From NCBI GenBank assembly GCA_050874585.1, contig JBNMKZ010000004.1, positions 7 through 64,006 of the forward strand: a DNA stretch of 64,000 bases, written 5' to 3'. Both the position numbers and the translations under genes were made by a program. The notes beneath the pieces are model-generated. The model was given only the letters and a program-made list of their open reading frames with translations, had not been told where the DNA came from and did not search any database. Shown here piece after piece: positions 1,165 to 64,000 of the stretch. The first letter of the stretch is position 1. Each line of letters starts with the position of its first letter. This DNA comes from Verrucomicrobiota bacterium (GTDB taxonomy: Bacteria; Verrucomicrobiota; Kiritimatiellia; RFP12; UBA1067).

Positions 1165-2277
1165 ATGGTTCGGCTTCTCGCAATTTTCGTCTCGTTTGCC
1201 GCGATTTCGCTTTGTGCACAACAGAGCGAAATCGCTCGCTTTGACGCGGCGATGGCGCAGGATGGCGTTGTTGTGACGAACGGCATGAAGTGGATTGACG
1301 GCCGATGCCTGCCGATTGAGGGACGGGCCTTCACGGATGTCGACCACTACTACGACCGACTGCCGTCGGATGTGACGACGAACGTCAATGCCGGTGTGCG
1401 TACGATGAAGCATCACACGGCGGGAATGCAGTTCCGCTTTACGACTGATTCGCGGCGGCTTGCCCTCAAGTGGATACCCTACAATGCGGGACTGTCGATG
1501 GACCACATGCCGGCGACTGGCGTCAGTGGAGTTGACATCTATCGGCGGGATGCGGCGAACGGAAGGTGGCGGTATGTCAAGACGGGGCGGATTTGGGATG
1601 CCCGCCAGGGTGGAACGCTTGAAATCCCCTGGACGCCGGGCGAGGCTTGCCTCATCAACCTTCCGCTTTACAATGGTGTCAAGTCCGTGACGCTTGGCGT
1701 TGAGACGAATGCGACGGTTTCGGCACTTGCGCCTCGGTCAAATGGGGTTGTCAAGCCGGTAGTCTTCTATGGGACGTCCATTACCCATGGGGGGTGCTGC
1801 TCACGCCCGGGCATGTCGTTCGTCAATATCGTTGGGCGCGAACTTGATGTCCCCGTTGTCAATCTTGGCTTCTCCGGCTCTGGGCGGATGGAGTTTGAGA
1901 TGAGCGAGCATCTTGCGCGAATTGATGCGAGTTGCTATGTCCTCGACACACTGTGGAATATGAACGACAGCCTTGTTGAAGAACGGTATGAGCCGTTCAT
2001 TCGCAACCTTCGTGCGAAGCGTCCGGGTGTGCCAATTGTGATGGTTGAATTTTATAGCGTTCATTCCGAGTGGCAGTCGTCAATGGACAGGACGATTCGG
2101 AAACTTTACGAAAAGCTTCTTTCCGAAGGCTGGGATCATCTTGTCTATTTGCCGCGCCGCGGCATGTATGTGGATGATGAGGGGACCGTGGACGGGGTTC
2201 ATCCGAACGACTGGGGAATGGTTTCCCTTGCCAAGGGTTTTGAAAAGTCAATTAGAGAAGCATTGGAACTGAAATGA
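1165..2277 (+). CDS. secreted SGNH/GDSL-family hydrolase
   Basis: Internal ATG 1165 gives the signal peptide MVRLLAIFVSFAAISLCAQQ. SGNH blocks GTSITHG, GFSGSG and DGVHPND are present. The track ORF start at 1048 overlaps dapA. Confidence 0.8.
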   Translation: MVRLLAIFVSFAAISLCAQQSEIARFDAAMAQDGVVVTNGMKWIDGRCLPIEGRAFTDVDHYYDRLPSDVTTNVNAGVRTMKHHTAGMQFRFTTDSRRLALKWIPYNAGLSMDHMPATGVSGVDIYRRDAANGRWRYVKTGRIWDARQGGTLEIPWTPGEACLINLPLYNGVKSVTLGVETNATVSALAPRSNGVVKPVVFYGTSITHGGCCSRPGMSFVNIVGRELDVPVVNLGFSGSGRMEFEMSEHLARIDASCYVLDTLWNMNDSLVEERYEPFIRNLRAKRPGVPIVMVEFYSVHSEWQSSMDRTIRKLYEKLLSEGWDHLVYLPRRGMYVDDEGTVDGVHPNDWGMVSLAKGFEKSIREALELK

Positions 2278-3632
2278 GTATGAAAGTCTACAACAGTTTG
2301 ACGCGTTCCATCGAGGACTTGAAGCCACTCAAGGACAACGAGATTCGCCTTTATACCTGTGGTCCGACCGTCTACAATTTTGCGCACATCGGGAACTTTC
2401 GGGCCTACGCCTTTGAGGACATCTTGCGCCGTGTTATCCAGTTCAATGGCATGAAGATTCGCCAGGTGATGAATCTGACGGATGTGGATGACAAGACGAT
2501 TCGGGGCGCCAATGCCGCGAATGTGAAGTTGACGGACTATACGCAGACCTACAAGGATGCGTTCTTCGCCGACCTCAAGAAACTCAATATCCAGCCCGCC
2601 GAGGTCTATCCGGCGGCAACGGATCACATTCCCGAAATGATTGCGATAGTCGAGAAACTCGTGGAGAAGGGCATCGCCTATCGGAGTGAGGATGGGTCGG
2701 TCTATTTCAACGTTCGCAAATTCCCGGGCTATGGGAAGCTCGCCCACATTGACTTTGACAATCAGCGCACGGGGGCGCGGTGCGCGGCGGATGAGTATGA
2801 CAAGGAGAACGTCGGGGACTTTGCGCTTTGGAAAGCCTGGGAGCCGTCGGACGGGCCAGTCGGCTGGGATTCTCCGTGGGGACGCGGTCGTCCGGGTTGG
2901 CACATCGAGTGCTCGGCCATGTCGATGAAGTATCTCGGCGAGACATTCGACCTCCATACGGGTGGCATTGACAATCTCTTCCCCCATCATGAGAACGAAA
3001 TCGCACAGGCTGAGGCGGCGACGGGCAAGCCGTTCGTGAATACGTGGATGCATTGCGCCCATTTGCGGGTGAACGGCGAGAAGATGTCGAAGTCGGCGGG
3101 GAACTTCTTTACGCTTCGTGATCTGCTTGAGAAGGGGTATACAGGGCGGGAGATTCGCTACGTCCTCATCAACGCTCACTATCGGCAAGGGCTGAACTTC
3201 GCCTTTTCGGCTCTGGACGACGCGCGAAAGTCGCTCGCCCGCATTGATGCCTGCGTGGAGAAGGCGACGGAGGGTGAGATTCCCGACTGGGCGCAAAAGC
3301 ACGTGGACGACTTTACGGCGGCCGTGAATGACGACCTCAATACGCCGAAGGCGTTTGCCGCGCTCTTCGAACTCGTGCGCGAGACGAATTCGCATGGTGG
3401 CGGACCTGTGCTGGGGGCTTTCCGGCGCATGGACGAGGTGCTGGGCGTCATTTTCTTCGGCAAGGTCGCGAAGGCTGAGATTCCGGGCGAGATCCAGGCC
3501 CTGCTGACGGCGCGAGCCGAGGCCCGCAAGGCGAAGAATTGGGCCGAGAGCGACCGCCTGCGCGACGAAATCGCCGTCGCTGGCTGGATTGTCAAGGATT
3601 CAAAGGAGGGGCAGTCATGCACAAGGAAGTAA
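2274..3632 (+). CDS. cysS: cysteine--tRNA ligase
   Basis: Class I aaRS motifs HIGN and KMSKS; CysRS-like throughout; ATGA overlap with the upstream stop. Confidence 0.95.
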   Translation: MSMKVYNSLTRSIEDLKPLKDNEIRLYTCGPTVYNFAHIGNFRAYAFEDILRRVIQFNGMKIRQVMNLTDVDDKTIRGANAANVKLTDYTQTYKDAFFADLKKLNIQPAEVYPAATDHIPEMIAIVEKLVEKGIAYRSEDGSVYFNVRKFPGYGKLAHIDFDNQRTGARCAADEYDKENVGDFALWKAWEPSDGPVGWDSPWGRGRPGWHIECSAMSMKYLGETFDLHTGGIDNLFPHHENEIAQAEAATGKPFVNTWMHCAHLRVNGEKMSKSAGNFFTLRDLLEKGYTGREIRYVLINAHYRQGLNFAFSALDDARKSLARIDACVEKATEGEIPDWAQKHVDDFTAAVNDDLNTPKAFAALFELVRETNSHGGGPVLGAFRRMDEVLGVIFFGKVAKAEIPGEIQALLTARAEARKAKNWAESDRLRDEIAVAGWIVKDSKEGQSCTRK

Positions 3633-3922
3633 AGACGGAGGCGGAACTCAAGGATGCGATTGCCACGGGAAAGGTCCTGCTGGACTTTTGGGCAACCTGG
3701 TGCGGACCGTGCCAGATGATGGCACGGGCGATTGCAGACGAACTTGAGCCGAGAATGCCCGACTTGACCATCGTCAAGGTCAATGTGGATGAGGCTCCGG
3801 AACTCGCGGCAAAGTTTGGTGTCATGTCCATCCCTGCCCTTTTTTGCTATAATAATGGAGCAAAGACGGCGGAGTTCGTTGGTGTGACCCCTGTTTCGAG
3901 CATCGCGGCGGCTTTTAACTAA
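3617..3922 (+). CDS. trxA: thioredoxin
   Basis: WCGPC active site. ATG 3617 is preceded by the SD aaggagg. 101 aa. Confidence 0.9.
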   Translation: MHKEVKTEAELKDAIATGKVLLDFWATWCGPCQMMARAIADELEPRMPDLTIVKVNVDEAPELAAKFGVMSIPALFCYNNGAKTAEFVGVTPVSSIAAAFN

Positions 3923-3949
3923 TATCAAGAACTGGAATGGACTGAGATT

Positions 3950-5446
3950 ATGAATACGTATATGGATCGGTTTATGGAGGCCTTCCCCTACGAGGGATTG
4001 ACCTATGATGACGTGACGCTGGTGACGCAGTATGCGGACTTTTTGCCAGACGACGCCTCTCTTGAGACGAAACTGACGTCGCGCACGAAGATGAAAATTC
4101 CGTTTATGTCTGCCGCGATGGATACGGTGACGGAGGCCCCGATGGCGATTGCCATGGCACTGGCCGGCGGCATCGGGTGCATTCATAAGAACTTGGAGGA
4201 GGATGAGCAGGCCGCACAGGTCCGCCTCGTGAAGAACCACCTCAACGGCATGATCGAGAACCCGGTCTGTTTTCATGAGAACGATGACATCGGTTACCTG
4301 CGCAGCGAGAAGATTGCTCGCAAGTTGAAGTTCAACGGCTTCCCGGTACTGGACGACCAGAACCGTCTTGTCGGCATGATTACGTCGAGCGATATGCGGT
4401 TTGCGCCGATGAACGCGGCGAAACTGAAGGACGTGATGCAGAAGGGCCTGCTGACGGCCAAGCCGGGGACGACGCTGAAGGAGGCCTACGACCTGATGCG
4501 CGAGAACAAGATTGGCAAGCTGCCGCTCGTGGATCAGGATGGCCATATCGTTGGTCTTTACAGCTTTACGGATGTCAGCCGTATTGTTGAGAACGCCGCC
4601 GCGCCATCCAACTGTGATGACAAGTTCCGCCTGCGTGTGTCGGCATCGGTCTCGGGCGGCAAGGGCGACCTTTCGCGCATGGAGAAACTGGCGGATGCCG
4701 GTGTTGACGTGGTGGTCGTCGATTCGGCGCATGGGCACACGAAGGGCATCATGGACATGACGGAGTACATCGTCAAGCACTTCCCGAAGGTGGATGTCAT
4801 TGCCGGAAACATTGCGACGGGCGAGGCGGCGGTGGCCTTGGCCAAGTGCGGTGCGCATGCCGTCAAGGTTGGCATCGGGCCTGGGTCGATTTGTACGACG
4901 CGTGTCGTCTGTGGCGTGGGCATTCCCCAGCTGACAGCCGTCTACAACGCGGCGAAGGCGTTGCGCGGCACGGGAGTTGCGGTCATTGCCGACGGTGGCA
5001 TCAAGCTCTCGGGCGATGTTCCGAAGGCGTTGGCGGCGGGTGCCGACTCCGTGATGCTGGGGTCCGTCCTTGCGGGTACCGAGGAGTCCCCGGGCGAGAA
5101 AATCTACTCGAACGGCCGTCAGTATGTCGTCTATCGTGGCATGGGGTCGCTTGCCGCGCTCAAGAACGGCAAGGGATCGCGTGCGCGCTATTTCCAGGAT
5201 AACGAGTCCGAGGATGACCTCGTGCCGCAGGGCATCGAGGGCATGGTTCCGTACTCGGGTCACGTGAAGTCGATTATGACCCAGTTCTGTGGCGGCCTCC
5301 GTGCTTCGCTCGGCTACTGCGGTGCGAGGACGATTGCCGAACTCCAGGAGAAGGGCAAGTTCTTCCGCGTGACCACGGCGGGTCTGCGCGAGGCGCGTCC
5401 GCACGACATCACAATTACCAAGGAAGCCCCCAACTACCGGACCTAA
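3950..5446 (+). CDS. guaB: IMP dehydrogenase
   Basis: CBS pair plus the catalytic loop [11 protein letters not shown]; 498 aa. Confidence 0.95.
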
Positions 5447-6205: not shown

Positions 6206-8736
6206 GCGAGCAGCTGATTCCGACACCAAGTGTTTTCGGTGAGACCGGCAACTTCCTGCTGGAGCGGGAACTCGGGCGCGGCGGTATGGGTGGCGTCTAT
6301 ATGGGACGCGACAAGATGCTGGATCGCCCCGTGGCCGTCAAGGTCATGCTGAAGGAGTACGGCTCGGATGCCGAGTTCGTTGAACGGTTCAAGCACGAGG
6401 CCCAGGCGGCGGCTCGGTTGATTCACCCAAATATCGCCCAGATTTACTCCTATGGCATTGCCGACGGGATGCCGTACATCGCAATGGAACTGGTCGCTGG
6501 CGGCTCGCTTGACCAGCTGATGCGTAATGCCCCCGGCAAGACGGATGTGCCGCGCATCATGAAGATTGGTGAGCAGGTCGCGCAGGCTCTCCGTTGCGCG
6601 GCGGATCAGGGGCTTGTTCATGGCGACATCAAGCCTGAGAACATTCTCTTGGATGCCAACGGCAATGCAAAGATTGTTGATTTCGGTCTCGCCGGGATGC
6701 AGAAGAATACGGACGAGATCTGGGGAACGCCCTACTACATCTCGCCCGAGAAGGTTCGCAAGGAGGTCGTCGACTATCGGGCCGATATGTACAGTCTCGG
6801 TGCGACGCTTTACCATGCCCTGACGGGCGTCGCTCCCTTTGAGGGCGAGGATGCGACATCAGTCGTCAAGAAGCGCTTTGAGGGAATGCCGAAGAAGCCG
6901 AGCGAGGTGCGCCCGGGACTCTCCCCGCAGATTGACGCGCTGATTATGACGATGCTGGCCTTTAACAAGGAGGAGCGTTTCCCCAGTTTCGAAGCCTTGA
7001 TTGAAGAATTCAAGAAGGTCATGACGACGGGCTTGACGACGACCCAGGCCGTCTCGACGGCATCCGTTGCAACTCCTGCGAAGACGGGAACGATGGTGCG
7101 TCCGACCGGCAAGCGGATGGTGGTTCACGGCAAGCGGACGATGACGATGAAGCGTCCGGTTTCGGCCCCGGTTCCGCCTGTGGAGGACGAGGAGGATGAC
7201 GAGGACGAGAAGGGTGGCGGCCTTGGCGCGAAGGTCGCCGGAGTCATCATCGGCGTTATCGTCGTTGTTGGTGGTCTTGTGGGTGGACTCGTGTGGTACA
7301 AGTCGCACGAGCGGAGTTCGGCCGATGCGGCCTACCAGACGACGATTGAGACGAACTGCAAGAATGCGCGGGAAGCCGTTGCGACGACCCGCAAGGCGGC
7401 GGCGGAATTTGCCGACAAGTTTGCGGCCTTTGCCCAGAAGGCGACGGACGGGTGTGTGAAGGCCTCGGGCGAACTTTCAAAACTGTTGCCTGAGTTCGCG
7501 GCGGATCTGAAACTGCCGCCGACGAAGGAGCTGCTCGATCTCATCGCCTCGACCAACGCGGCTGCTTCGACTGCGGAATCCCCGGCGGCAACCAATGGGG
7601 TGGCGGCCGCGTCAACGGGCGCGACCAATGCGGCTCCAGCGGCTGCGACTGCGCCAGCACCTGCGGCAACCGAAGCCCCGGCGGCGGAATCGCGCAAGTT
7701 GCCGGCAGTCGTCAAGGATATGCAGGCCATCTGGGAGAAAGCCTACAGCTGTCAGGCGAGTGCCATTCGTATTCATCTCGCAATGATGAAGGTCGTCGCC
7801 GAATGCGATAAGGCCAATGGGGTTGTGGGTCAGACGAAGGAGGCGATGGAGGCTCTCGGCAAGTTGTCGCAGGACACCAAGGATATGTACGAGCAGGCGC
7901 GTGGATCCAAGGATGTTGAGAATGTTGAGAAGGGCATCTCTTTCATCAACAGTCGAGGCGAGAGAGCTATCAAGAAGACGGTGGAGGAACTGCGCCTTGA
8001 GAAACTCCGTCAGGAGCGTGAGGATGCGGCGGCGCGTGCGGCGGCCGACGCGGCGGCCCGCCAGAAGAAACTCGAGGAGGAGCGGCGGCAGAAGATTGAG
8101 GCAGAGACGGCGTCCGTTCGCGAGAAGTTTGATGCAATTGCCGCGACGAAGACCTTCCGCCTTCTGGATTGGACACACGCCATTCGACAGCTGAAAGACC
8201 TCAAGTCCGAGTTCACGACGGCCGAGGGATCGCTCGCGGCGGATGATGAGATTCGTAAGGTTGAGGCGATGAAGACCGTCCAGGAAATCCTGATTCAGAA
8301 CATGGTCGGGTACAAGTTCCGCGTCAGGAGCAAGGAAAAGCCGTTGCGTGGCTGCGTCGTCAAGTCCGCCAACAAGAAGGAAATTACGTTGGTCGGTGCG
8401 GATGGAGCCTCGTCACGCAAGCTGACATGGCAGAAGTTCTACGAGAAATACCCGGGCAATCTGAATGAGTTGCTGAACAAGTATATTGTGGATGGGAAGG
8501 GGGCCTCGAAGTCCGGCGACGGAAAGTTGTCGGCCAAGGCATGGACCGAGGCGATGTTCGGCGCGGCACTGACGATGCGTCTCATCTGTTCGGATGTTCC
8601 GGGGGCGCAGGCGCGCAGTGAGCAGATGGTGCGGGAAGCCGTCAAGGGCTTCGATGACGAGGCGATGACGAAGACGGCGCAGCGGCTCTTCCCCGACATT
8701 GAGAATCTCGACCAGGCCTCGTCGACGGAAGAGTAG
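6202..8736 (+). CDS. membrane-anchored Hanks-type Ser/Thr protein kinase with a long coiled C-terminal region
   Basis: GRGGMGGVY, VAVK, HGDIKPENILL, DFG and TPYYISPE motifs. TM segment VAGVIIGVIVVVGGLVGGLVWY. Ala- and Glu/Lys/Arg-rich C-terminal half. ATG 6202 overlaps the lepB stop (ATGA); an alternative ATG lies at 6187. Confidence 0.85.
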   Translation: MSEQLIPTPSVFGETGNFLLERELGRGGMGGVYMGRDKMLDRPVAVKVMLKEYGSDAEFVERFKHEAQAAARLIHPNIAQIYSYGIADGMPYIAMELVAGGSLDQLMRNAPGKTDVPRIMKIGEQVAQALRCAADQGLVHGDIKPENILLDANGNAKIVDFGLAGMQKNTDEIWGTPYYISPEKVRKEVVDYRADMYSLGATLYHALTGVAPFEGEDATSVVKKRFEGMPKKPSEVRPGLSPQIDALIMTMLAFNKEERFPSFEALIEEFKKVMTTGLTTTQAVSTASVATPAKTGTMVRPTGKRMVVHGKRTMTMKRPVSAPVPPVEDEEDDEDEKGGGLGAKVAGVIIGVIVVVGGLVGGLVWYKSHERSSADAAYQTTIETNCKNAREAVATTRKAAAEFADKFAAFAQKATDGCVKASGELSKLLPEFAADLKLPPTKELLDLIASTNAAASTAESPAATNGVAAASTGATNAAPAAATAPAPAATEAPAAESRKLPAVVKDMQAIWEKAYSCQASAIRIHLAMMKVVAECDKANGVVGQTKEAMEALGKLSQDTKDMYEQARGSKDVENVEKGISFINSRGERAIKKTVEELRLEKLRQEREDAAARAAADAAARQKKLEEERRQKIEAETASVREKFDAIAATKTFRLLDWTHAIRQLKDLKSEFTTAEGSLAADDEIRKVEAMKTVQEILIQNMVGYKFRVRSKEKPLRGCVVKSANKKEITLVGADGASSRKLTWQKFYEKYPGNLNELLNKYIVDGKGASKSGDGKLSAKAWTEAMFGAALTMRLICSDVPGAQARSEQMVREAVKGFDDEAMTKTAQRLFPDIENLDQASSTEE

Positions 8737-8742
8737 GCGGCC

Positions 8743-9426
8743 TTGGCAGTTGACTTCTCCCGTTCAGTTGCCCTTCTGGGTGAGCAGACTTTCGACCGTC
8801 TCGCGCAGGTACGCGTGGCGGTCGTTGGTGTCGGGGGCGTTGGCAGTTGGTGTGCCGAGGCCCTGTTGCGCACGGGCGTTCGACACCTGACGCTCATTGA
8901 CGACGATTTGGTTGCGCCGAGCAATGTGAACCGTCAGTGTCCGGCAACGGCGCGGACGATTGGCCAGCCGAAAGTGCTTGTCATGCGTGACCGCCTGCTT
9001 GAAATCAATCCGGACGCGGATATTGTGGCAATTCCCGAACGTTATGTGGGGGGCGTACCTTGCGGCGGTGCGGTGGATGCCATTGCCGACGCAATCGATT
9101 CAGTGGATTGCAAGGCGGAACTGATTCTCGCCTCAACGGCGGCGGGCGTTCCAATCGTCAGTTCAATGGGCGCGGCACTTCGGTTCGATCCGACGAAAGT
9201 GGTAGTGCGTCGCTTCGATCGGATTGCGGGTGATGGTCTTGCCCGTGCCCTTCGGCAGAAGTTTCGTCGTCTGGAGCGGTTTCCATCCTCCAAGTTCATG
9301 TGCGTCACGACGGATGAACTCCCCGTGCGCCGTCCCGACCTCCGTACGAAGGGGAGTCTGATGACGGTGACGGCGACATTCGGCATGGTTCTGGCCGCCG
9401 AAGTCATGAAGACTTGCCTCAAATGA
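8743..9426 (+). CDS. tcdA: ThiF/MoeB-family protein, TcdA-like tRNA t6A dehydratase
   Basis: Rossmann motif VVGVGGVGSW. Size and sequence are TcdA/CsdL-like. Apparent TTG start. Confidence 0.75.
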   Translation: MAVDFSRSVALLGEQTFDRLAQVRVAVVGVGGVGSWCAEALLRTGVRHLTLIDDDLVAPSNVNRQCPATARTIGQPKVLVMRDRLLEINPDADIVAIPERYVGGVPCGGAVDAIADAIDSVDCKAELILASTAAGVPIVSSMGAALRFDPTKVVVRRFDRIAGDGLARALRQKFRRLERFPSSKFMCVTTDELPVRRPDLRTKGSLMTVTATFGMVLAAEVMKTCLK

Positions 9427-13290: not shown

Positions 13291-13446
13291 GCCGCGTGTG
13301 CCGTGGGGAGAACTTGCCTATTGGGAAGGAAGGACGGGCTCGTGCCTACGAAGACGCGCTCCCATCGGGACGAAAGCGTTCTCTTTTCCGCAGGAAGAGG
13401 GGCGGATATCCCGAAGGGAACGGGTTTTGATGCCCATCAGGAAGGG

Positions 13447-13530
13447 CAAGCACTAAGGTGGTTTGGATAAAGCACTAAGGTGCTTTGCTCAAAGGACTAA
13501 GGTGCTTTGTTGAAAGGACTAAGGTGCTTT
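13447..13530. repeat. four 18-bp 7-4-7 near-palindromes at exact 22-bp spacing (array I core)
   Basis: Units CAAGCAC-TAAG-GTGGTTT, AAAGCAC-TAAG-GTGCTTT and AAAGGAC-TAAG-GTGCTTT (x2) start at 13447, 13469, 13491 and 13513. Confidence 0.9.
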
Positions 13531-13612
13531 CCCTTCGTATTCCGCAACGCAGCCCTTCCTTATGGGCAGAGCAACCCTTCCTATTGGTGCAAAACGCCCA
13601 TCTTTTTGGGCG
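13531..13612. repeat. right arm of array I: CCCTT/CCCAT motifs every 22 bp, ending in a CGCCCA/TGGGCG hairpin
   Basis: CCCTT at 13531, 13553 and 13575; CCCAT at 13597. They are mirrored by AAGGG 13442, ACGGG 13420 and AGGGG 13398 about a dyad at 13488.5. Confidence 0.7.
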
Positions 13613-30287: not shown

Positions 30288-30379
30288 TCTGGGATGCGCA
30301 ACCCAACGGGTCTAACTTGCGCAACCGAAGGGGTCTGGGATGCGCAACCCAAAGGGTTTAGGTTGCGCAACCTAAAGGG
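30288..30379. repeat. four tandem 23-bp units with a TGCGCAACC core (array II, left arm)
   Basis: tctgggatgcgcaacccaacggg / tctaacttgcgcaaccgaagggg / tctgggatgcgcaacccaaaggg / tttaggttgcgcaacctaaaggg. Unit 4 contains the perfect palindrome GGTTGCGCAACC. Confidence 0.9.
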
Positions 30380-30463
30380 AAAGGACTAAGGAGGTTTCTT
30401 CAAAGGACTAAGGTGCTTTGATCAAACCACCTTAGTGCTTTGTGCAAAGGACTAAGGTGCTTT
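30380..30463. repeat. four 18-bp 7-4-7 near-palindromes at 22-bp spacing (array II core)
   Basis: AAAGGAC-TAAG-GAGGTTT, AAAGGAC-TAAG-GTGCTTT, AAACCAC-CTTA-GTGCTTT and AAAGGAC-TAAG-GTGCTTT start at 30380, 30402, 30424 and 30446. This is the same unit family as 13447-13530. Confidence 0.9.
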
Positions 30464-30749
30464 CCCGTTCTCCTGCTTGTCTTCACTCGTGGAGACAAGC
30501 CTCTCCACTCTCTGTAATCGTCAAAAACCCCGTTTGTGATGAGCATTTCCGCATCGATTCATGCAGTCGCGGGAGCTCGCATCCGCGCGAACGGGCGCAG
30601 GGTGATGCGCAGGTCCCGCCTGACGGCCCCGTCGTGCTCGTCGGGATTCTGCGCTCCCGGTCGGGCGAGGTTCCTTCCTCTTTTACGGACCCATTCGGTT
30701 TTACAATTTTCCGATTTCTTTTCTGCACTTGCACAGGAGGCGCGGAATT

Positions 30750-57166: not shown

Positions 57167-57284
57167 TTTCGTACGCATGGACCGCAAGCGGATTCCACGG
57201 TCGCGGCGCGGCAAAAGTACAGGAGCGCGGCGAAATGTCCACAGGAGATAGTGCGATCCTGTACATCAGACGAGCGAGTCCTAC

Positions 57285-57616
57285 TCATGAATGCGGGTCA
57301 TTCCTCTCATGCAAAAGGGCAAGACATCTCATGAACAAGGGTCAACCATGTCACAACGAAGGGCGGAGATGTACAGGACAAAGGGAAAGTACCATGCTAC
57401 TTTTGATAAAGCACCATGCTGGTTTGTCCAAACCACCATGCTACTTTTCACAAACCAGCATGGTGGTTTCCGCTTGTCATAAGATCCCTGACCCTTCTTC
57501 ATGAGATGTCCGACCCTTCTTCATGAGATGTCTTGCCCTTTTGTATGACAGGAATTTCACCAAATCAAGGGAGGAATTGCCCGTCGTCATGAGATTGTTT
57601 GGCCCGTTTCTTAGGA
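57285..57616. repeat. dyad-symmetric array of about fifteen 22-bp-phased units (array III)
   Basis: Left units TCAnnAnnAAGGGnnA start at 57285, 57307, 57329, 57351 and 57372. Four 7-4-7 palindromes with a CATG centre start at 57386, 57408, 57430 and 57452. Inverted copies of the left units start at 57489, 57511, 57533 and 57577. The symmetry axis is at 57427.5. Confidence 0.9.
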
Positions 57617-57617
57617 A

Positions 57618-57898
57618 TGCCGCGGGATGCCTGTGGTCGGCCTTGTCCCTCCTCTCGGGCGAGGGGGTGAGCGCGAAGTGTCGCGAGTGAGGTCTTCCAC
57701 GGGGCGCCACCGTGAGAGTTGTCTTGTCCGAAACCAGTGATAACCACCGAGGCTGGACAGGCTAAGTAAACTTTTGTTGCCCAGGCGCGAAAGGTGAGCG
57801 CAACCGTGGAAGCCGAGACCGAGCGACAGCTTCGCGCAAGCCCCCGAGCAAGCGGTTCCTGCGGGGCAGAACACGAAAACCTTCAGTGAATTTCAGTG
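57618..57898 (+). repeat. long repeat copy A (candidate structured RNA or mobile repeat)
   Basis: 57618-57867 matches 58173-58422 with 2 mismatches in 250 nt. The shared tail CTTCAGTGAATTTCAGTG ends at 57898. Confidence 0.9.
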
Positions 57899-58126
57899 TC
57901 GGTCGATAGACCGTTCAGTGTGTTCTGTGGCAGAAAACAAGCACTCCCTCCACCCACGCCGTCGGATCATCCGTCCCTTCGGGACTGCGAACCCCTCAGT
58001 TCGCCGTCGCCGCGCCCCACCCGCTCCTCCCTCCGCCCGCTCGTGGGCCTGTCCGGGGCTTCGCGAACGGCAGTCGCATGGACGGGGAATGGCACATTCG
58101 GCCCTGCTTGGGAGGCCGGGGAAAAG

Positions 58127-58495
58127 CCACACCGCGCAGGCGTTCAGAAGGCGCAAGCGCGGCAAAACCATCTGCCGCGGGATGCCTGTGGTCGGCCTTG
58201 TCCCTCCTCTCGGGCGAGGGGGTGAGCGCGAAGTGTCGCGAGTGAGGTCTTCCACGGGGCGCCACCGTGAGAGTTGTCCTGTCCGAAACCAGTGATAACC
58301 ACCGAGGCTGGACAGGCTAAGTAAACTTTTGTTGCCCAAGCGCGAAAGGTGAGCGCAACCGTGGAAGCCGAGACCGAGCGACAGCTTCGCGCAAGCCCCC
58401 GAGCAAGCGGTTCCTGCGGGGCTGACACGAAAATTCACGAAAGCCGCCTGACGGCGGACACGAAACCGCCGCGCCCTCTTCAGTGAATTTCAGTG
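58127..58495 (+). repeat. long repeat copy B with a 5' extension shared with copy C
   Basis: The 5' extension CCACACCGCGCAGGCGT...CGCGGCA...TGCCGCG matches 61040-61121. The core is 99% identical to A. There is a 3' insertion relative to A. Confidence 0.9.
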
Positions 58496-58831
58496 ACCGC
58501 CGCTAGGCATGGTAAACTCCAGGGGTAAAAATGGGTGTAGATTGCGAAGTAAGTGGACAGGGGCGACGGTAGGTCGGCGAGGGTCGCTTGTCCCCATGTC
58601 TTGAAGGCACGGATTTGCCTTGGAAGCCAAGACTCCACTGTGGGGCCTGCGTGTCCCGCGCGGAGTCCGTTCATTGGAGATTCCCCAATTTTTGAGGCAA
58701 GAAAATCGCCGCGCCCTTGAAAACAAAGGGTGAAGTGGCGATTTCCGTTTTGCGCCAAGTGAAAATCCGACAATAGGAGCACCGAGGCGTTCCGTGTCGA
58801 GACGCAGAAATTGGCCGTTGCGAGGGGTTCG

Positions 58832-60112
58832 TCATCCCGTGTTCATTCCGAAGAATGCGAAGAGCGACGCCCCGTCCCTCTTCTCGGCTTCCTCGGGGTC
58901 GAACCCGCGCCACCTGCGGCCTCTTTTCAGGATGTCGCTCGCTCCGTCCGCGATGGCGTAGAAGTGGAATTCCGGCACGTCGTGTATCCTGAACGACATG
59001 CGCGCGACGCTTCTTGCGATGACGTCGTGCCTCTCCGAGTTCCCGCTCCATGCCATGCTGAAGTAGACTGTAGTCAGGACGATCGCGGCCAGGGCCTTGA
59101 TCTTGGCGTACCTGAACAGGCGCATGTCCTCGAGGCTGTAGGACTGCTTGACGTGGCGGATGGTGTCCTCGACCCTCCAGCGGGTGATGTATCCCTCCAC
59201 GACCTGCCAGAGCGCCTCGCGCGTCGTTGTCTTCGCGAGGGTCGTCAGCAGCATCATCGGCTTCTGCCCGAACCCCCTCACGACGACCATGTGCAGGAGC
59301 CTGTCGGGGATGTCGGGAAGCCGCACGGGCACGGCGCCGAACTCGATCGTCACGCGACGCTCCTTCCCGTGGTGGTCGAACGTCACGACCTCCCTGTAGC
59401 GCATCCGGCACTCCCAGGCGAGTTCGCCGCACATGACGTTGCGCTTCCAGCTGCGCACGTACCTTTCCTTGAGTCGGACGATGAAATCCAGCCCTTTCCC
59501 GAGGAAATGGCGGTAGAACTCGATGTTGTCTCCGCCACGGTCGTACACGAATATCCCCCGCCTCTTCGTGTGCCTGGTGATTCCATCCACGATGGGCTTC
59601 ACCTCCTCGTTCTCGCTGACGAACCCCGGCGAGTCCGCGGACCACAGCCTGAAGTGCAGCGGAATCGGCCTGCGGCCGCCTGATTCGCGGGCTACGGCCA
59701 TGCAGCCCCAGAAGCCGAGGTTGTCGCCCACCTCGCCCTTGCTCCCGTCCCAGACCTTGGCGAGGTACTCCATCTTCTTCGCGTAGGGCTTCTGCACGTC
59801 GGACGGGTCCAGGATGATGAGCGCGTTCCTGTGGACCCTCCTGGCGCCCTCGGAGGCGATGAGGCGGTGCAGCCCCGCCTCCAGCCCGTCCGACGAGAGC
59901 ATCCGGCTGAGCCTGTCCTCGACCTTTTTCGGGGTGGTTTCCTCCTTCAGCGCGCGGACCACGGACGAGAGCTTCACGTCCTTCTCCGCCATGATCCCGT
60001 AGACCATGTCGCCTATGAAACGGGCGACCGGCTTGTGGAAATGGGGGGAAATCCTCCCCAGAAAAGATTCAAGTTGCCCGAGCAGTTTCGCCGCAATTGT
60101 GGTATCATGCAT
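58832..60112 (-). CDS. IS4-family DDE transposase
   Basis: 426 aa, with YDRGGD and the IS4 Y-x2-R-x3-E-x6-K signature (YITRWRVEDTIRHVK). Confidence 0.9.
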   Translation of the reverse strand: MHDTTIAAKLLGQLESFLGRISPHFHKPVARFIGDMVYGIMAEKDVKLSSVVRALKEETTPKKVEDRLSRMLSSDGLEAGLHRLIASEGARRVHRNALIILDPSDVQKPYAKKMEYLAKVWDGSKGEVGDNLGFWGCMAVARESGGRRPIPLHFRLWSADSPGFVSENEEVKPIVDGITRHTKRRGIFVYDRGGDNIEFYRHFLGKGLDFIVRLKERYVRSWKRNVMCGELAWECRMRYREVVTFDHHGKERRVTIEFGAVPVRLPDIPDRLLHMVVVRGFGQKPMMLLTTLAKTTTREALWQVVEGYITRWRVEDTIRHVKQSYSLEDMRLFRYAKIKALAAIVLTTVYFSMAWSGNSERHDVIARSVARMSFRIHDVPEFHFYAIADGASDILKRGRRWRGFDPEEAEKRDGASLFAFFGMNTG

Positions 60113-60149
60113 GGCGTCGCCTTTCCTGTTTGGTGTTTAGCACTTCGGC

Positions 60150-60158
60150 ATTATACCG
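60150..60158 (-). promoter_or_regulatory. -10 CGGTATAAT for the transposase, within a CTTCGG/CCGAAG palindrome
   Basis: Read on the minus strand, about 38 nt upstream of the start at 60112. Confidence 0.5.
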
Positions 60159-60273
60159 AAGATCGAACTCGAAAGGCGACTCTCTTTCCCAAAAATCGGC
60201 TCATAACCGCGCAGACCGTCGCAACGTCTTGCCAGCGAAGAAAAATGGGGAACCTCCAAAAGCGGATACCCCG

Positions 60274-60303
60274 TTGACATCGGAGAGGCGTTTTTGGTAT
60301 CAT
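60274..60303 (+). promoter_or_regulatory. promoter for tRNA-Met: TTGACA, 18-bp spacer (its last 3 nt are the TGG of the extended -10), TATCAT
   Basis: -35 at 60274-60279 and extended -10 TGGTATCAT at 60295-60303. It lies just outside the IS right end. Confidence 0.6.
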
Positions 60304-60322
60304 ATACGCGTTCACCTTTATT

Positions 60323-60398
60323 GGCGAGATAGCTCAGTTGGTAGAGCGCAGGACTCATAAGCCTAAGGTCAAGGGTTCGATCCCCTTTCTCGCCACCA
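60323..60398 (+). tRNA. tRNA with CAU anticodon (Met, or Ile2 if lysidinylated), encoded CCA, weak anticodon stem
   Basis: Acceptor GGCGAGA/TCTCGCC, D arm GCTC/GAGC, T arm AAGGG-TTCGATC-CCCTT, loop CTCATAA. The anticodon stem has C27-A43 and A31-G39 mismatches. Confidence 0.8.
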
Positions 60399-60434
60399 TT
60401 CTTCACAATCCCTCCCAACGAAGAACTGCACAGT

Positions 60435-60887
60435 ATGAGAATCCTTTTTTGCTGTCACGGCAACATCTGCCGCTCACCCATGGCCGAATTCGTCATGAAG
60501 GAACTGGCCAGAAAAGCCGGGCGCACGGACCTTGTCATCGAATCCGCAGCCCTTCATACGGACGAAATTGGCAATGACATCCATCCCGGCACGCGTGCCG
60601 AACTGCTGAAGCACGGCATTCCCTTTGCACCCCGTGCCGCCTGGCAGCTGACGGCCTCGAAGGCCAAGTCATACGACCTTCTCATTGGCATGGACGACTA
60701 CAACATGGCGGACCTTCGGAGACTGGTCGAGCCTGCCGCGCGCGGCAAAATTCATCGTCTCCTTGCGTACGCAGGGCTTGACCGCGCCATCGCCGATCCG
60801 TGGTACACGGGGGACTTCGACGCGACCTATCGCGACGTTCTCCTCGGTTGCACGGCTCTCCTCAAGGAGATCGCCGCGCCCGCCTGA
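60435..60887 (+). CDS. low-molecular-weight protein-tyrosine phosphatase
   Basis: CHGNICRS (C-X5-R-S) P-loop at residues 7-14 and a DP motif (DPWY). Confidence 0.9.
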   Translation: MRILFCCHGNICRSPMAEFVMKELARKAGRTDLVIESAALHTDEIGNDIHPGTRAELLKHGIPFAPRAAWQLTASKAKSYDLLIGMDDYNMADLRRLVEPAARGKIHRLLAYAGLDRAIADPWYTGDFDATYRDVLLGCTALLKEIAAPA

Positions 60888-60896
60888 GGACGGCCC

Positions 60897-60920
60897 GTCC
60901 CTCTCTCGGGCGAGGGGGTG
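60897..60920 (+). repeat. solo copy of the hairpin module CCCTC-TCTCGGGC-GAGGGGG from the long repeat
   Basis: GTCCCTCTCTCGGGCGAGGGGGTG begins 10 nt after the phosphatase stop. The same module lies inside copies A, B and C. Confidence 0.7.
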
Positions 60921-61039
60921 CGGCACACGGGAAGGGTCGGTTTGAGCCGGCCGAGGCCTGCGGGCGAACCACGGAAAGGCGAAGGGTGGTTTTTAGCCGC
61001 AAGGGACGCAAAGGTCGCAGAGAGTGGGGGAGAGAGGCC

Positions 61040-61353
61040 CCACCGCGCAGGCGTGTGAAGGCGCGAGCGCGGCAGTTTGGGTGGCCTGCCGGACGGCAGG
61101 CCGGCAAGACCATTTGCCGCGTTTTGGCCTGTGGTCAGCCTGTTCCTTCTCTCGGGCGAGGGGGTGCGCGCGAAGTGTCGCGAGTGAGGTCTTCCGCGGG
61201 GCGCCACCGTAGGAGTTGTTTCGTCCGAAACCAGCCGTCTTGTCGAGGCTGGACAGGCTAAGTAAACTTTTGTTGCCCAGGCGCGAGAGGTGAGCGCAAC
61301 CGTGGAAGCCGAGACCGAGCGACAGCTTCGCGCAAACACACGAGCAAGCGGTT
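61040..61353 (+). repeat. long repeat copy C (diverged, roughly 87% identical to A in the core)
   Basis: Collinear with B, including the 5' extension. The 3' half GGCTGGACAGGCTAAGTAAAC...CAGCTTCGCGCAA is nearly identical. It ends directly at a TGATATAAT promoter. Confidence 0.9.
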
Positions 61354-61356
61354 TTA

Positions 61357-61365
61357 TGATATAAT
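61357..61365 (+). promoter_or_regulatory. extended -10 TGATATAAT immediately after repeat copy C
   Basis: Same junction geometry as the proS promoter. Its transcript would run through the poly-C tract toward the 61729 operon. Confidence 0.5.
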
Positions 61366-61483
61366 ATGCGCCGAAAGCGAGAATTAGCGGAGTTTGTGAT
61401 GGAGTCGGCGATGACTGAGATTCGCCCGAGGTGGCGTATAAGCGCACGAAACGGTGCGCCTGCGACTCCGTTTGCTAAGTTTA

Positions 61484-61500
61484 CCCCCCCCCCCCCCCCC
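61484..61500 (+). repeat. homopolymeric tract of 17 C
   Basis: Counted directly and cross-checked against the track translation (PPPPPP). Confidence 0.95.
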
Positions 61501-61728
61501 AGTAACAGGCGCGTGTGACGGGTGGCTGAGCCACTTCTTGCCTTTTGGACTGCGGATCCTCAGGATTCTCCGTACGGTTGCCCATCTGGCACATTTTTCC
61601 TTTTATTTCCTCTCGGGGCACATAGTTGTGCCCAGGTTGGAGTTTGTACGGCAAAGGCATGCCACTTCATTTTCCCGCGTGGGCGGCGGCCTTGGAGGTT
61701 GTCGCGGGAGAAGGAATGAAAGGGGTTG

Positions 61729-62172
61729 ATGATGCACGATGATATGCGATTGAAATATATGGTGGCCAAGGGACTTGGATGCCTCAATGTTCCATGTCTT
61801 GAAGCGTGCAATGAGAGTTGTCCTTGCGAGAAACTGAAGAATTTTGTTAAGGAGGAATCTAAGAAACCTTCTGCAAATACTGCCTCTCTTGAACTTGAAT
61901 GGGTGCATGTTCCTACATGGGAAAGTGTTGGCGTTCGGTTGAAGCGCGCGATTTCGATTGGGGTTGTGCTGGGGTTGGGGATACTTTTGGGTGCTGGGGT
62001 GGTGAAGGGATGTTGTTCAAATGAGAGAGAGATTAAGGTATCTTTGTCTAAAGACGGATACCAAATTGAGCGCCGTTTTGAATCGATAGAAGATTTTGAG
62101 AAGATCGGGACTAATGACCTTCGGCGTGTCATGAACGCGCTTGAGAGCCTTCACAAATCAGGTAATAACTGA
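61729..62172 (+). CDS. hypothetical single-pass membrane protein with a Cys-rich N-terminus
   Basis: SD gaaagggg upstream. N-terminal CLNVPCLEACNESCPC and TM segment AISIGVVLGLGILLGAGVV. Lower GC than the core genes. Confidence 0.55.
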   Translation: MMHDDMRLKYMVAKGLGCLNVPCLEACNESCPCEKLKNFVKEESKKPSANTASLELEWVHVPTWESVGVRLKRAISIGVVLGLGILLGAGVVKGCCSNEREIKVSLSKDGYQIERRFESIEDFEKIGTNDLRRVMNALESLHKSGNN

Positions 62173-62202
62173 GTTTAGAGGGCCTTTCCAAGGATACTGA
62201 AG

Positions 62203-62883
62203 ATGCAATGCGAAAAAGAGCAGCAGATTACTCCTCGCGCCATCTATGAGTCATTTTGGAAATGTCGCGATCTTGAAATCAACATGCTGTGGACGCGGCT
62301 GACTTTGTTGGGCGCGTTCATGGGCTTGACCTATGCCGGATATGGTACGCTGATTCTGAAAAGCGTCGACGGCATTGGAAATTGGGATGTCTTTCATCTT
62401 GTGGCCATTGGCGCGAGTAGCTTTGGTTTGCTCTTTTCGATTCTGTGGACGACGACCGCCAAGGGGTCGAAAGCGTGGTTTGAGCGGTATGAGGCGATGA
62501 TTGCCTATTTCCAGGAAACATACAAAGACTTGGGTCTCTTTGCGAGAACGGCGGGCGAGGATCTGGTTCTCTCGTATCTTGACGATGGCAATCGAAACGT
62601 CGTCCGGCGGTTGAGGCCCCTTGACACCGATTTGTTTTCGCAGTATGCCGGCGCCTATTCGGTTTCAAAAATCCCAATCGTCATGGGGCAGGTTTCGATT
62701 GTGGCGTGGGGCGTCATCGGAATCGTCCATGCGGTTGCCTGCGTGATCGGGCGGCGCGGCATTCTCGATTTCGTCCAGAATGTTCATGTCGGGGCAATTG
62801 CCGTGGCAATGGTTGTTGTGACGGCCATCAGTGCCTGCCTCGTCTGCTCCTGTGTCGGGAGCAGCGCTTTGAAGGGGAAGTGA
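62203..62883 (+). CDS. hypothetical 4-TM membrane protein
   Basis: 226 aa. An N-terminal amphipathic region, then a TM hairpin (LWTRLTLLGAFMGLTYAGYG / VFHLVAIGASSFGLLFSILW), a soluble linker and two more TM helices. Confidence 0.65.
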   Translation: MQCEKEQQITPRAIYESFWKCRDLEINMLWTRLTLLGAFMGLTYAGYGTLILKSVDGIGNWDVFHLVAIGASSFGLLFSILWTTTAKGSKAWFERYEAMIAYFQETYKDLGLFARTAGEDLVLSYLDDGNRNVVRRLRPLDTDLFSQYAGAYSVSKIPIVMGQVSIVAWGVIGIVHAVACVIGRRGILDFVQNVHVGAIAVAMVVVTAISACLVCSCVGSSALKGK

Positions 62884-62885
62884 AC

Positions 62886-63140
62886 ATGATGCGAGTTCCG
62901 GAACATATCGTTTCATTCGGACAGAGCGCATCGGGCGATTCTGGGGGGGCGGTGCGAAAACTTTTTTATTCCCCGCGTCACTTTTCCGTTCCGAGAAGGG
63001 AATATGCAGTAGAGGATATGGAAGACTCAATCTACAAAAAATGCGGACTCGCCCTCAACTGCATTCCAATGTCCGCAGAAATTGAGTTGGCTGAATATTG
63101 CTTCGGCGTGACAAAGGAAGAATCCCATTTGATTCGTTAA
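62886..63140 (+). CDS. hypothetical small soluble protein (84 aa)
   Basis: The internal ATG 62886 lies 2 nt after the upstream stop. No recognisable motifs. Confidence 0.45.
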   Translation: MMRVPEHIVSFGQSASGDSGGAVRKLFYSPRHFSVPRREYAVEDMEDSIYKKCGLALNCIPMSAEIELAEYCFGVTKEESHLIR

Positions 63141-63225
63141 TTCTGCAAAAACAAGCGATGTATAGATTCGCCCTTGTCTGGTCGCTTGCAAAATACATAA
63201 GGGAAACAGCATAAAGGAAGTCGCT

Positions 63226-64000
63226 ATGGTTAAAGAAACAACAATGGCAGAAGAAGAAGTAGGTGCTGCCATCACGCAAGGTGGAAACCCTGTAAATAAT
63301 AGCAAAGTTGATCTTACCCCAAGACTTGTTAAGGAACCGGCGGCAATTGCAAAACTCTGGGAGAAAATTGATGTCCGCCGGGGATCCTTTGAGATTCCGC
63401 GCCTGCGAAAGGACGGGTTCGTAGAGATGAACCTTGCCGGAACTGGAATTGAGAAGGCCATGTATGCACTTGGCAAGCCAGGGATTAAAGATATTATCAG
63501 TGTAGAGGCGATGGTATTCCCATGTGTTTCCATAGCCCAGAAGGTCGCTGCTGATCTTCGGTGGTATGAAAGGCTGAGATTCAAACCAAAGGATCGAACA
63601 GATTTGATTCCGCTAGCCAAAAATCAAAGGGATTATCGCGATCCGTGGTCAGATGGTAAATTCCCATCTTTTGAAGGCAAGACCTCTGGTAGTGAAATAA
63701 TTCCGCAATCATGTGTTTTGGATGATTGCCCTGCTTGCGATGGCGAGGGTACTAAACTTGGTAAGGTCTTTCAGGGACAAAAAGACAGAGGTTGGATTAC
63801 GTGTCGGCACTGTGATGGTACTGGGAAAGAAGGTGCATTGCTTTGCGATCATTGTCAGGGCCACGGAGGTTGGTATTCTCGTAGTCAAGTCAACCAGTAT
63901 GCCACGCAGCAGGTAAAGTGCGACAAATGCGATGGCTCCGGGAAGTTGCTGGCGGTGTTAAAGGCTCACAAGCAGGTGGATACGTATGAGAAGTTCGATT
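63226..64000 (+). CDS. hypothetical protein with four DnaJ-type CxxCxGxG zinc-finger repeats; 3' end beyond the window
   Basis: Not in the ORF track because no stop occurs within the window. SD aaaggaag precedes ATG 63226. Hand translation gives 258 codons without a stop, with CPACDGEG, CRHCDGTG, CDHCQGHG and CDKCDGSG at 63727-63941. Confidence 0.7.
   Translation, partial: MVKETTMAEEEVGAAITQGGNPVNNSKVDLTPRLVKEPAAIAKLWEKIDVRRGSFEIPRLRKDGFVEMNLAGTGIEKAMYALGKPGIKDIISVEAMVFPCVSIAQKVAADLRWYERLRFKPKDRTDLIPLAKNQRDYRDPWSDGKFPSFEGKTSGSEIIPQSCVLDDCPACDGEGTKLGKVFQGQKDRGWITCRHCDGTGKEGALLCDHCQGHGGWYSRSQVNQYATQQVKCDKCDGSGKLLAVLKAHKQVDTYEKFD

Follow-up and report, generated by a model that had tools for sequence, protein, structure and literature searches.

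In the last part of a 64,000-nt stretch of DNA from a Verrucomicrobiota bacterium (contig JBNMKZ010000004.1; the whole stretch is referred to below as the window), four open reading frames (ORFs), here named P1 to P4, follow one another on the same strand at positions 61729–64000. The explanation that we favour, and that we consider probable, is that they make up an accessory islet, some 3.6 kb long, mosaic in structure and specific to this strain, in which two independently evolving envelope modules stand under one conserved leader. The first module would be made of P1 and P2, the latter a member of the 8xMP family (Pfam PF24838), and the second one of P4, a zinc-finger protein with a C-terminal membrane anchor. 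P1, P2 and P4 are real genes, with homologues elsewhere. The conserved core is P2, which adds a further protein to a family that has been catalogued but carries no assigned function; the combination of partners in which it is found here is new.

Composition and extent of the islet

The ORF list and the translations gave gaps of 30, 2 and 85 nt between successive ORFs, with a Shine-Dalgarno-like motif 5′ of each of the four, and the tight co-directional arrangement described in a first-pass annotation of the sequence was thus reproduced in coordinates and spacing. The lower GC content noted in the same annotation was also found: it was 48.6% at 61729–64000 versus 58.3% in the whole window, and this is the 2272-nt stretch of minimum GC within the 64 kb. 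The GC at third codon positions (GC3) was 0.45 for P1, 0.65 for P2, 0.48 for P3 and 0.44–0.48 for P4, and ranged from 0.72 to 0.88 in the comparison genes proS, low-molecular-weight protein tyrosine phosphatase (LMW-PTP) and transposase.

The 3′ limit of the islet was located with the aid of an independent contig (L001; the loci fetched from public sequences are numbered with the prefix L), which has 100% identity with the window along 2507 nt, begins within the poly-C tract that forms the upstream border of the low-GC islet, and extends about 1.1 kb past the end of the window. In this contig, GC climbs again within about 100 nt past the P4 stop codon, which means that the low-GC insert measures about 3.6 kb and contains only these four ORFs. 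The exact P2 sequence is present on two short public contigs. As the first-pass annotation had remarked, none of the four products is a recognisable housekeeping protein. All this supports the view that the four genes are accessory, compositionally foreign, non-housekeeping and membrane-associated, and that they lie at a recombination-prone spot.

P2 and the 8xMP family

P2 matched Pfam PF24838 with 65.8 bits (gathering threshold 30, E 4.5e-18), its residues 14–176 aligning with profile positions 3–134 out of 136. It keeps the invariant family motifs LWTRLT..G.FM.LTY.GYG, AKGSK.W.E.YE and SVS.IP..GQ.S. At least 183 homologues of P2 were found; all the 120 that were listed carry PF24838, and one of them is named as coming from Kiritimatiellae. 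About four transmembrane (TM) helices were predicted, in agreement with the earlier description of P2 as a 4-TM protein. The AlphaFold2 (AF2) model of the P2 monomer was all-helical, with a predicted local distance difference test score (pLDDT) of 70.5, and displayed a long hairpin formed by helices 11–57 and 61–108, plus a helix at 156–218. A PDB sequence search gave nothing below E 0.7 for P2, and in Foldseek no PDB entry matched the model with E<1. In the literature, neither a source for the name of the 8xMP/PF24838 family nor a published function was found; a literature search for a link of TM2 and DnaJ with defence was equally negative.

P1 and the conserved leader

The description of P1 as a single-pass protein with a Cys-rich N-terminus held good, with one predicted TM segment and an N-terminal motif PC-x3-C-x3-5-CPC. 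The same motif is found in the ORF that precedes 8xMP in L004-type loci, and P1 is 39–42% identical to the ORFs located 5′ of 8xMP in L004, L008, L011 and L017 (E 6e-26). Profile searches of Pfam, NCBIfam, PHROGs and PADLOC gave zero matches for P1. Another type of upstream ORF, that of L016, L025, L026 and L022, has a P1-like architecture and is not homologous; the idea that P1 could be its distant homologue was rejected with an hhalign probability of 1.3%. Considering all the loci, 8xMP pairs with at least three non-homologous upstream cassettes, P1 being one of them.

The leader that precedes P1 was identified by blastn to L025 and L022 and by comparison of upstream sequences. It is common to many 8xMP operons irrespective of the type of upstream cassette. 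In an alignment of six loci its fold was weak, with an RNAalifold energy of −6.5 kcal/mol and three pairs showing compensatory changes. As to its role, promoter, operator and structured 5′ untranslated region are all possible.

The usual partners of the P1–P2 pair

Among the GTDB representatives, 8xMP occurred in eight loci, seven of them in metagenome-assembled genomes (MAGs) of Kiritimatiellia or Lentisphaeraceae and one in a short contig binned as Lachnospiraceae. A small single-pass ORF stands 5′ of 8xMP in most loci (L024 has none that is clear, and L021 only a short candidate), and this small ORF together with 8xMP is, from sequence comparison, a recurrent pair in gut MAGs of Kiritimatiellia and Lentisphaeria. 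P2 follows this rule, as it lies behind a small single-pass ORF and the conserved leader. The third member of the relatives' loci is an exported protein, with an Ig-like N-domain followed by either an FGE-sulfatase domain, of C-type-lectin fold (L004–L011, L016, L017, L018, L022, L023, L025 and L048), or a BspA-type leucine-rich repeat (LRR) or other lectin-like domain (L019, L024, L026 and L047). In about 15 other loci it is encoded 3′ of the pair; in L022 it lies 5′ of 8xMP. The trio formed by the small ORF, 8xMP and the exported protein is low in GC relative to its hosts too.

The window differs from this pattern. Downstream of P2 there is an orphan ORF and a zinc-finger protein with a TM2-like anchor, rather than an FGE-sulfatase/C-type-lectin or LRR protein. 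No FGE-like ORF was found in the window, and the exported C-type-lectin or LRR neighbour of the trio is missing from it; the sequence available 3′ of the P4 stop codon covers about 100 nt. A different arrangement again is that of a Bacillus plasmid (L046, see below), where the partner of 8xMP is a phospholipase D (PLD)-like nuclease, unlike P3 and P4.

A connection of the pair with a diversity-generating retroelement (DGR) was observed once. In L020, on the same contig as L012, a genuine DGR lies directly 5′ of a small ORF + 8xMP pair, with an FGE-fold target, an HRDC gene, a reverse transcriptase (RT), and template (TR) and variable (VR) repeats whose mismatches fall at TR adenines in 14 out of 19 cases. 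This locus belongs to a sheep-rumen Kiritimatiellae MAG, and the DGR is immediately followed there by the small ORF and 8xMP, as well as by a pair of genes for AbiEi and AbiEii. The likeness to the window consists in that the canonical partner of P1/P2 has the same FGE-sulfatase fold as DGR targets, and in that the L020 pair sits behind RT, HRDC and TR/VR; the difference is that neither an RT homologue, nor an FGE-sulfatase gene, nor a pair of repeats with adenine bias is present in the window. The possibility of ongoing hypermutation of the FGE genes of L004–L011 was rejected, as they make up two fixed haplotypes with the putative VR constant within each.

Given that in related PVC-group gut bacteria an exported ligand-binding protein nearly always accompanies the pair, and that the pair once lies behind a DGR, it seems reasonable to read it as a membrane hub. 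P1 and P2 would form a putative oligomeric complex in the inner membrane, acting as anchor, transducer or pore for an exchangeable partner.

The mosaic boundary and the origin of P3

The closest relative of the locus is L025, whose 8xMP is 93% identical to P2 at the protein level. At the nucleotide level, the identity to L025 (92%) is restricted to positions 62225–62926, plus 51 nt of the leader. Outside these limits both loci are different: L025 carries the other type of cassette upstream, and its downstream gene encodes a 511-aa FGE-sulfatase protein. The homology to L025, as well as that to L016, ends a few tens of nucleotides past the P2 stop codon, where the recombination breakpoint is placed (Table 1). 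The GC3 of P2, higher than those of P1, P3 and P4, is in line with the mosaic structure. Another contig, L002, from a second sequencing run, corresponds to window positions 61966–62911 and ends 15 nt short of the breakpoint at about 62926; a possible reason for this end is that the assembly graph branches between strains at the mosaic junction.

P3 starts precisely in this region. The earlier description of its product as an 84-aa soluble protein is correct in that the ORF has 84 codons' worth of protein and no TM segment. In pairwise alignments, its first 11 codons correspond to intergenic sequence of L025 and L016: at that point L025 has an 11-codon mini-ORF (MARVPEHIVSF-stop), and in L016 the ATG is absent. 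P3 had no match in Pfam, NCBIfam, PHROG or PADLOC, and no tblastn or blastp relative in any fetched locus; the ORFs found at the equivalent position in L048, L009 and L047 were compared with it and are unrelated. Since the start of P3 is intergenic in relatives and no relative of it was found in the fetched loci, P3 is probably a chimeric junction ORF. According to the mechanism that we propose, a recombination event just 3′ of P2 would have replaced the usual exported partner and brought in P4, creating at the same time P3, which would probably be meaningless.

The same data admit another interpretation, which we consider unlikely: that what is left here is the scar of a recombination, now in decay, with the partner lost, P1 and P2 orphaned, P3 spurious and P4 stray, the genes having no joint function and being perhaps unexpressed. 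In a variant of this explanation, the upstream poly-C tract might switch the set off. A scar would agree with breakpoints lying exactly at module borders, with the chimeric nature of P3, with surroundings rich in insertion sequences (IS) and repeats, with the absence from the window of the genes that usually accompany P4 (see below), and with the combination having been seen only in this genome and in assemblies of two runs. Against decay, the ORFs of P1, P2 and P4 are complete, free of frameshifts and premature stops; they keep conserved motifs and are preceded by good ribosome-binding sites, and the conserved leader has been kept as well.

P4, a zinc-finger protein with a membrane anchor

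Only the first part of P4 is encoded in the window. The full-length protein, of 594 aa, was obtained from L001 (positions 1733–3517), which is identical across the overlap. Beta-rich regions occupy its N-terminal and central parts, and it also has four CXXCXGXG knuckles, a lysine-rich linker and a C-terminal anchor. The four knuckles, at aa 166–240, are the four zinc-finger repeats mentioned in the first-pass annotation. The C-terminus contains two or three hydrophobic helices, at about aa 495–585, and the tail FVKKDGNGNRM. So, a soluble cytoplasmic nature of P4 had to be discarded: the full-length product ends in a TM2-like membrane anchor.

Concerning the zinc finger, the knuckles matched PF00684 just above threshold, with 38 bits for the partial and 33.7 bits for the full-length protein (cut-off 32.7), and in this they resemble the DnaJ/Hsp40 proteins. 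There was no match to the J domain, and the NCBIfam DnaJ models scored far under their cut-offs. Anti-TRAP and BSD2 are examples of relatives that use just the central cysteine-rich domain of DnaJ. P4 differs from DnaJ in having neither the J domain nor the DnaJ C-terminal domains, and in that its finger is set within a novel beta-rich protein which is tethered to the membrane. The AF2 model of P4 had a pLDDT of 72 (80–93 in the core) and was rich in long beta-strands. As in the case of P2, the PDB sequence search gave nothing below E 0.7. In the structure search, the knuckles alone matched anti-TRAP and DnaJ locally, with anti-TRAP over about 29 residues. The other fold matches in PDB and BFVD had TM-scores of 0.1 or less, and the top ones, beta-pore-forming toxins and flavivirus E proteins, were rejected because they share with P4 only the long beta-strands. 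Judged from the model, the non-finger domains of P4 have no recognised fold.

Concerning the anchor, the PF05154 (TM2) profile aligned with aa 494–537 with 12.8 bits, below the gathering threshold of 27.9. The C-terminal helical hairpin, with its G..G.H..YA.R motif and short turn, has what we take to be the typical features of TM2. The anchor module differs from TM2 in an extra third helix and in an invariant FIKKDGxGNRM tail, and it can be described as a distinct module restricted to the Planctomycetes–Verrucomicrobia–Chlamydiae (PVC) bacteria. P4 has no signal peptide, and its linker is strongly basic before the first helix, so that the zinc-finger part is predicted to face the cytoplasm. 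P4 would thus be a tail-anchored protein of the inner membrane, whose cytoplasmic DnaJ-type zinc finger and novel beta-rich domain would most likely bind other proteins at the membrane.

The P4 family in other genomes

The relatives of P4 were few. Three were retrieved from 5.8 billion proteins by a word-indexed search, and an exhaustive HMMER search over 1.84 billion representatives gave 79, of which about nine were full-length and the rest matched the anchor only. A profile search with the 9-sequence P4 alignment returned zinc-finger relatives only. In a set of 54 anchor-bearing proteins, CXXCXGXG fingers were present in 30, Sel1 repeats in 11, an FGE-sulfatase domain in one and an HNH domain in one, and PF05154 was matched at E<0.001 in just one of the 54.

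L003 encodes the anchor in a gene of its own (2268–2864), whose 198-aa product has an acidic N-terminal region and scored 16.6 bits with PF05154, again below 27.9. This gene is located two genes 5′ of a P4 homologue that lacks the anchor (3694–5187). This domain fission supports the idea that the anchor and the remainder of P4 work together.

The anchor-family genes lie 3′ of a cluster that encodes an extracytoplasmic function (ECF)-type sigma factor, a Ser/Thr kinase, a 270-aa lipoprotein and paralogous proteins of 216 and 184 aa. This cluster was found whole or in part in L028, L030, L031, L034, L035, L037 and L043–L045. It is followed by at least one protein with a variable head (CXXCXGXG, Sel1 or zinc ribbon) on a constant anchor that ends in FIKKDGKGNRM. 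8xMP was present in none of the P4-family cluster loci examined, and the cluster genes were not found in the window. The family of the second module of the islet is thus, elsewhere, one of ECF-sigma/Ser-Thr-kinase/lipoprotein clusters.

Do the four genes work as one system?

The first-pass annotation had proposed the four genes as a single candidate conflict system, and had specified that the proposal would fail if they never occurred together in other genomes. In no other locus found does the set co-occur: P1 and P2 alone recur together, with a different third partner, and the P4 family appears in other clusters without 8xMP. This is the outcome that the annotation itself had set against a single system. 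It had also suggested the pairing of membrane effector-like proteins with a cytoplasmic sensor-like protein. The membrane association agrees with our results, while the sensor part of the picture is weakened because P4 is itself anchored to the membrane.

In its strongest form, this proposal would have the four genes as one anti-phage or abortive-infection system, with the zinc-finger/beta domain of P4 as the sensor of infection and P1/P2 as the proteins that open or disrupt the membrane. We think it quite unlikely, although several observations are of the kind expected from it. The low-GC islet lies beside an IS, repeats and a tRNA gene, and exchangeable partners such as those of 8xMP are common for defence effectors. 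Relatives of 8xMP were found near defence genes: AbiEi/AbiEii in L012, ParE/Phd in L004, L008 and L048, PDC-S01 (AAA_14/DUF4143) in L004, and also STAND-like ATPases. In the B. subtilis plasmid NZ_CP035396.1 (L046, 52556–54072), a 178-aa 8xMP (E 2.7e-25) is followed by the PLD-like nuclease, while a strong Gabija GajA/GajB lies some 2.6 kb away and a cytosine methyltransferase is also nearby; this 8xMP–nuclease pair is a possible two-gene defence candidate in its own right. In L028, a relative of P4 has an FRG/PDC-S15 gene on one side and an Hhe/PDC-S37 helicase-nuclease on the other. This circumstantial evidence from neighbours comes from a handful of loci, without a statistical test, and from it a conflict role is possible. 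Against a single defence system it counts that PADLOC-DB v2 gave no match for P1, P2, P3 or full-length P4 (partial P4 gave a weak match to PDC-M01B, E 0.002, with the zinc finger only), that the four genes are not found together elsewhere, that P3 resembles a junction artefact, that the usual partner of 8xMP is an exported binding protein and not a cytoplasmic sensor, and that no defence gene was identified in the examined part of the window.

The set can also be compared with known defence systems that use membrane effectors, like the octameric pore Csx28 of type VI-B CRISPR, the TM effectors of CBASS and Pycsar, and Rst_2TM_1TM_TIR. The likeness lies in small multi-pass proteins coupled genetically to interchangeable partners, and in variable regions. 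The differences are that no sequence or fold similarity was found, by PADLOC or by Foldseek against the PDB, and that the window set has no signalling enzyme, nuclease or NTPase.

The islet could also be considered as cargo of a prophage or mobile element, e.g., a holin-like, lysis or superinfection-exclusion membrane cassette, since small membrane proteins in a low-GC patch near a tRNA gene and a transposase, together with the weak resemblance of the zinc finger of P4 to PHROG families, are compatible with such an origin. We find this hardly credible. The 8xMP and P4 families gave zero matches in 2.9 million viral contigs and in GenBank phages, the PHROG matches to P4 are confined to the generic CXXCXGXG repeats, no integrase or structural gene was seen, and GC recovers about 100 nt past P4, leaving an insert of merely 3.6 kb or so.

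The explanation as a mosaic islet of two envelope modules is thus retained, with a functional link between P2 and P4 as a putative one, but several points weigh against it. The tight co-directional spacing, the Shine-Dalgarno-like motifs and the single compositional islet suggest co-expression, and selection may therefore favour the combination. The exported FGE or LRR partner could lie beyond the about 100 nt seen past the P4 stop codon. The combination is known only from this genome and from assemblies of two runs with a common accession prefix. The oligomeric assembly is a putative one, and the label 'octameric' derives for P2 from the Pfam family name alone. Finally, the lack of homologues of P3 refers to the fetched loci and the profile libraries, the large protein databases not having been searched.

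Surroundings of the islet

The coordinates of the islet and of the features around it are summarized in Table 1. The tRNA gene, the IS, the long repeats and the poly-C tract mentioned in the first-pass annotation were all located, at 57618–61502. The LMW-PTP gene that separates the tRNA-Met gene from the islet is an ordinary one. The repeats of about 250 nt are 88–99% identical to each other and flank the IS, the tRNA-Met and the LMW-PTP gene on both sides. They gave no match in Rfam, and their interpretation as a TR/VR pair of a DGR was rejected, as the mismatches have no adenine bias. That the assembly of L001 breaks inside the poly-C tract would agree with a variable tract length, or possibly with phase variation. 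Further upstream, a large imperfect palindrome is related to copies near 13419–13580 and 30352–30471, and may be a dispersed element similar to miniature inverted-repeat transposable elements (MITE-like) or to repetitive extragenic palindromic sequences (REP-like).

Table 1. Location of the four ORFs, the leader and other features, in window coordinates unless a locus is named.
Feature	Coordinates	Strand	Remarks
P1	61729–62172	+	147 aa; single-pass membrane protein; TM segment at aa 73–95
P2	62203–62883	+	226 aa; PF24838 '8xMP' (octameric membrane protein family)
P3	62886–63140	+	84-aa ORF
P4	63226–64000	+	First 258 of 594 aa in window; gene would end at about 65010
Conserved leader	61650–61716	+	About 70 nt (GGCAYGCCACTT...TTTTC.GCGC...GGCGCGGGAGAAGGA); ends at P1 ribosome-binding site
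Leader copies	L025:1–53; L022:7797–7867; L018:675–750; L004:5504–5580; L011:338–412
Recombination breakpoint	62884–62930		Homology to L025 and L016 stops about 43 nt past P2 stop
Poly-C tract	61484–61502	+	19 C, as read in the sequence; about 225 nt 5′ of P1
Terminator-like hairpin	61520–61545		3′ of poly-C tract
GC-rich repeats, about 250 nt	57618–57870; 58173–58425; 61102–61353		Partial copy at 60882–60922
LMW-PTP gene	60435–60887		Between tRNA-Met and islet
tRNA-Met	60323–60398
DDE_Tnp_1 transposase	58832–60112
Large imperfect palindrome	57269–57585		22-nt tandem units (AAAGYACCATGCT...)
DGR of L020	L020:5812–9462		FGE-fold target with VR 7252–7396, HRDC gene, RT, TR 9163–9307

Significance

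Taken by itself, the gene set of the window is of small import, a one-off mosaic of uncharacterised membrane-protein genes. A wider generalization would be that 8xMP and its single-pass partner make up a general membrane hub or effector wired to exchangeable recognition proteins. These would be the DGR-diversifiable exported C-type-lectin protein, the LRR protein, the PLD nuclease of Bacillus and, in the present case, a tethered zinc-finger protein. Such a general role seems to us decidedly unlikely; if true, recognition or defence systems based in the envelope would gain a new class, of which the window would hold a variant with a cytoplasm-facing sensor.

The value of the finding is rather in the two directions to which it points. 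One is the three-gene unit of gut PVC bacteria in which 8xMP is accompanied by a single-pass protein, itself variable, and by an exported lectin-fold or LRR protein, a unit sometimes linked to a DGR and often located beside toxin-antitoxin and defence genes. The other is the PVC-restricted family in which a constant TM2-like anchor carries variable zinc-finger or Sel1 heads, within clusters encoding an ECF sigma factor and a Ser/Thr kinase. Either of them, the 8xMP unit or the anchor family, could be a new system of envelope recognition or conflict.

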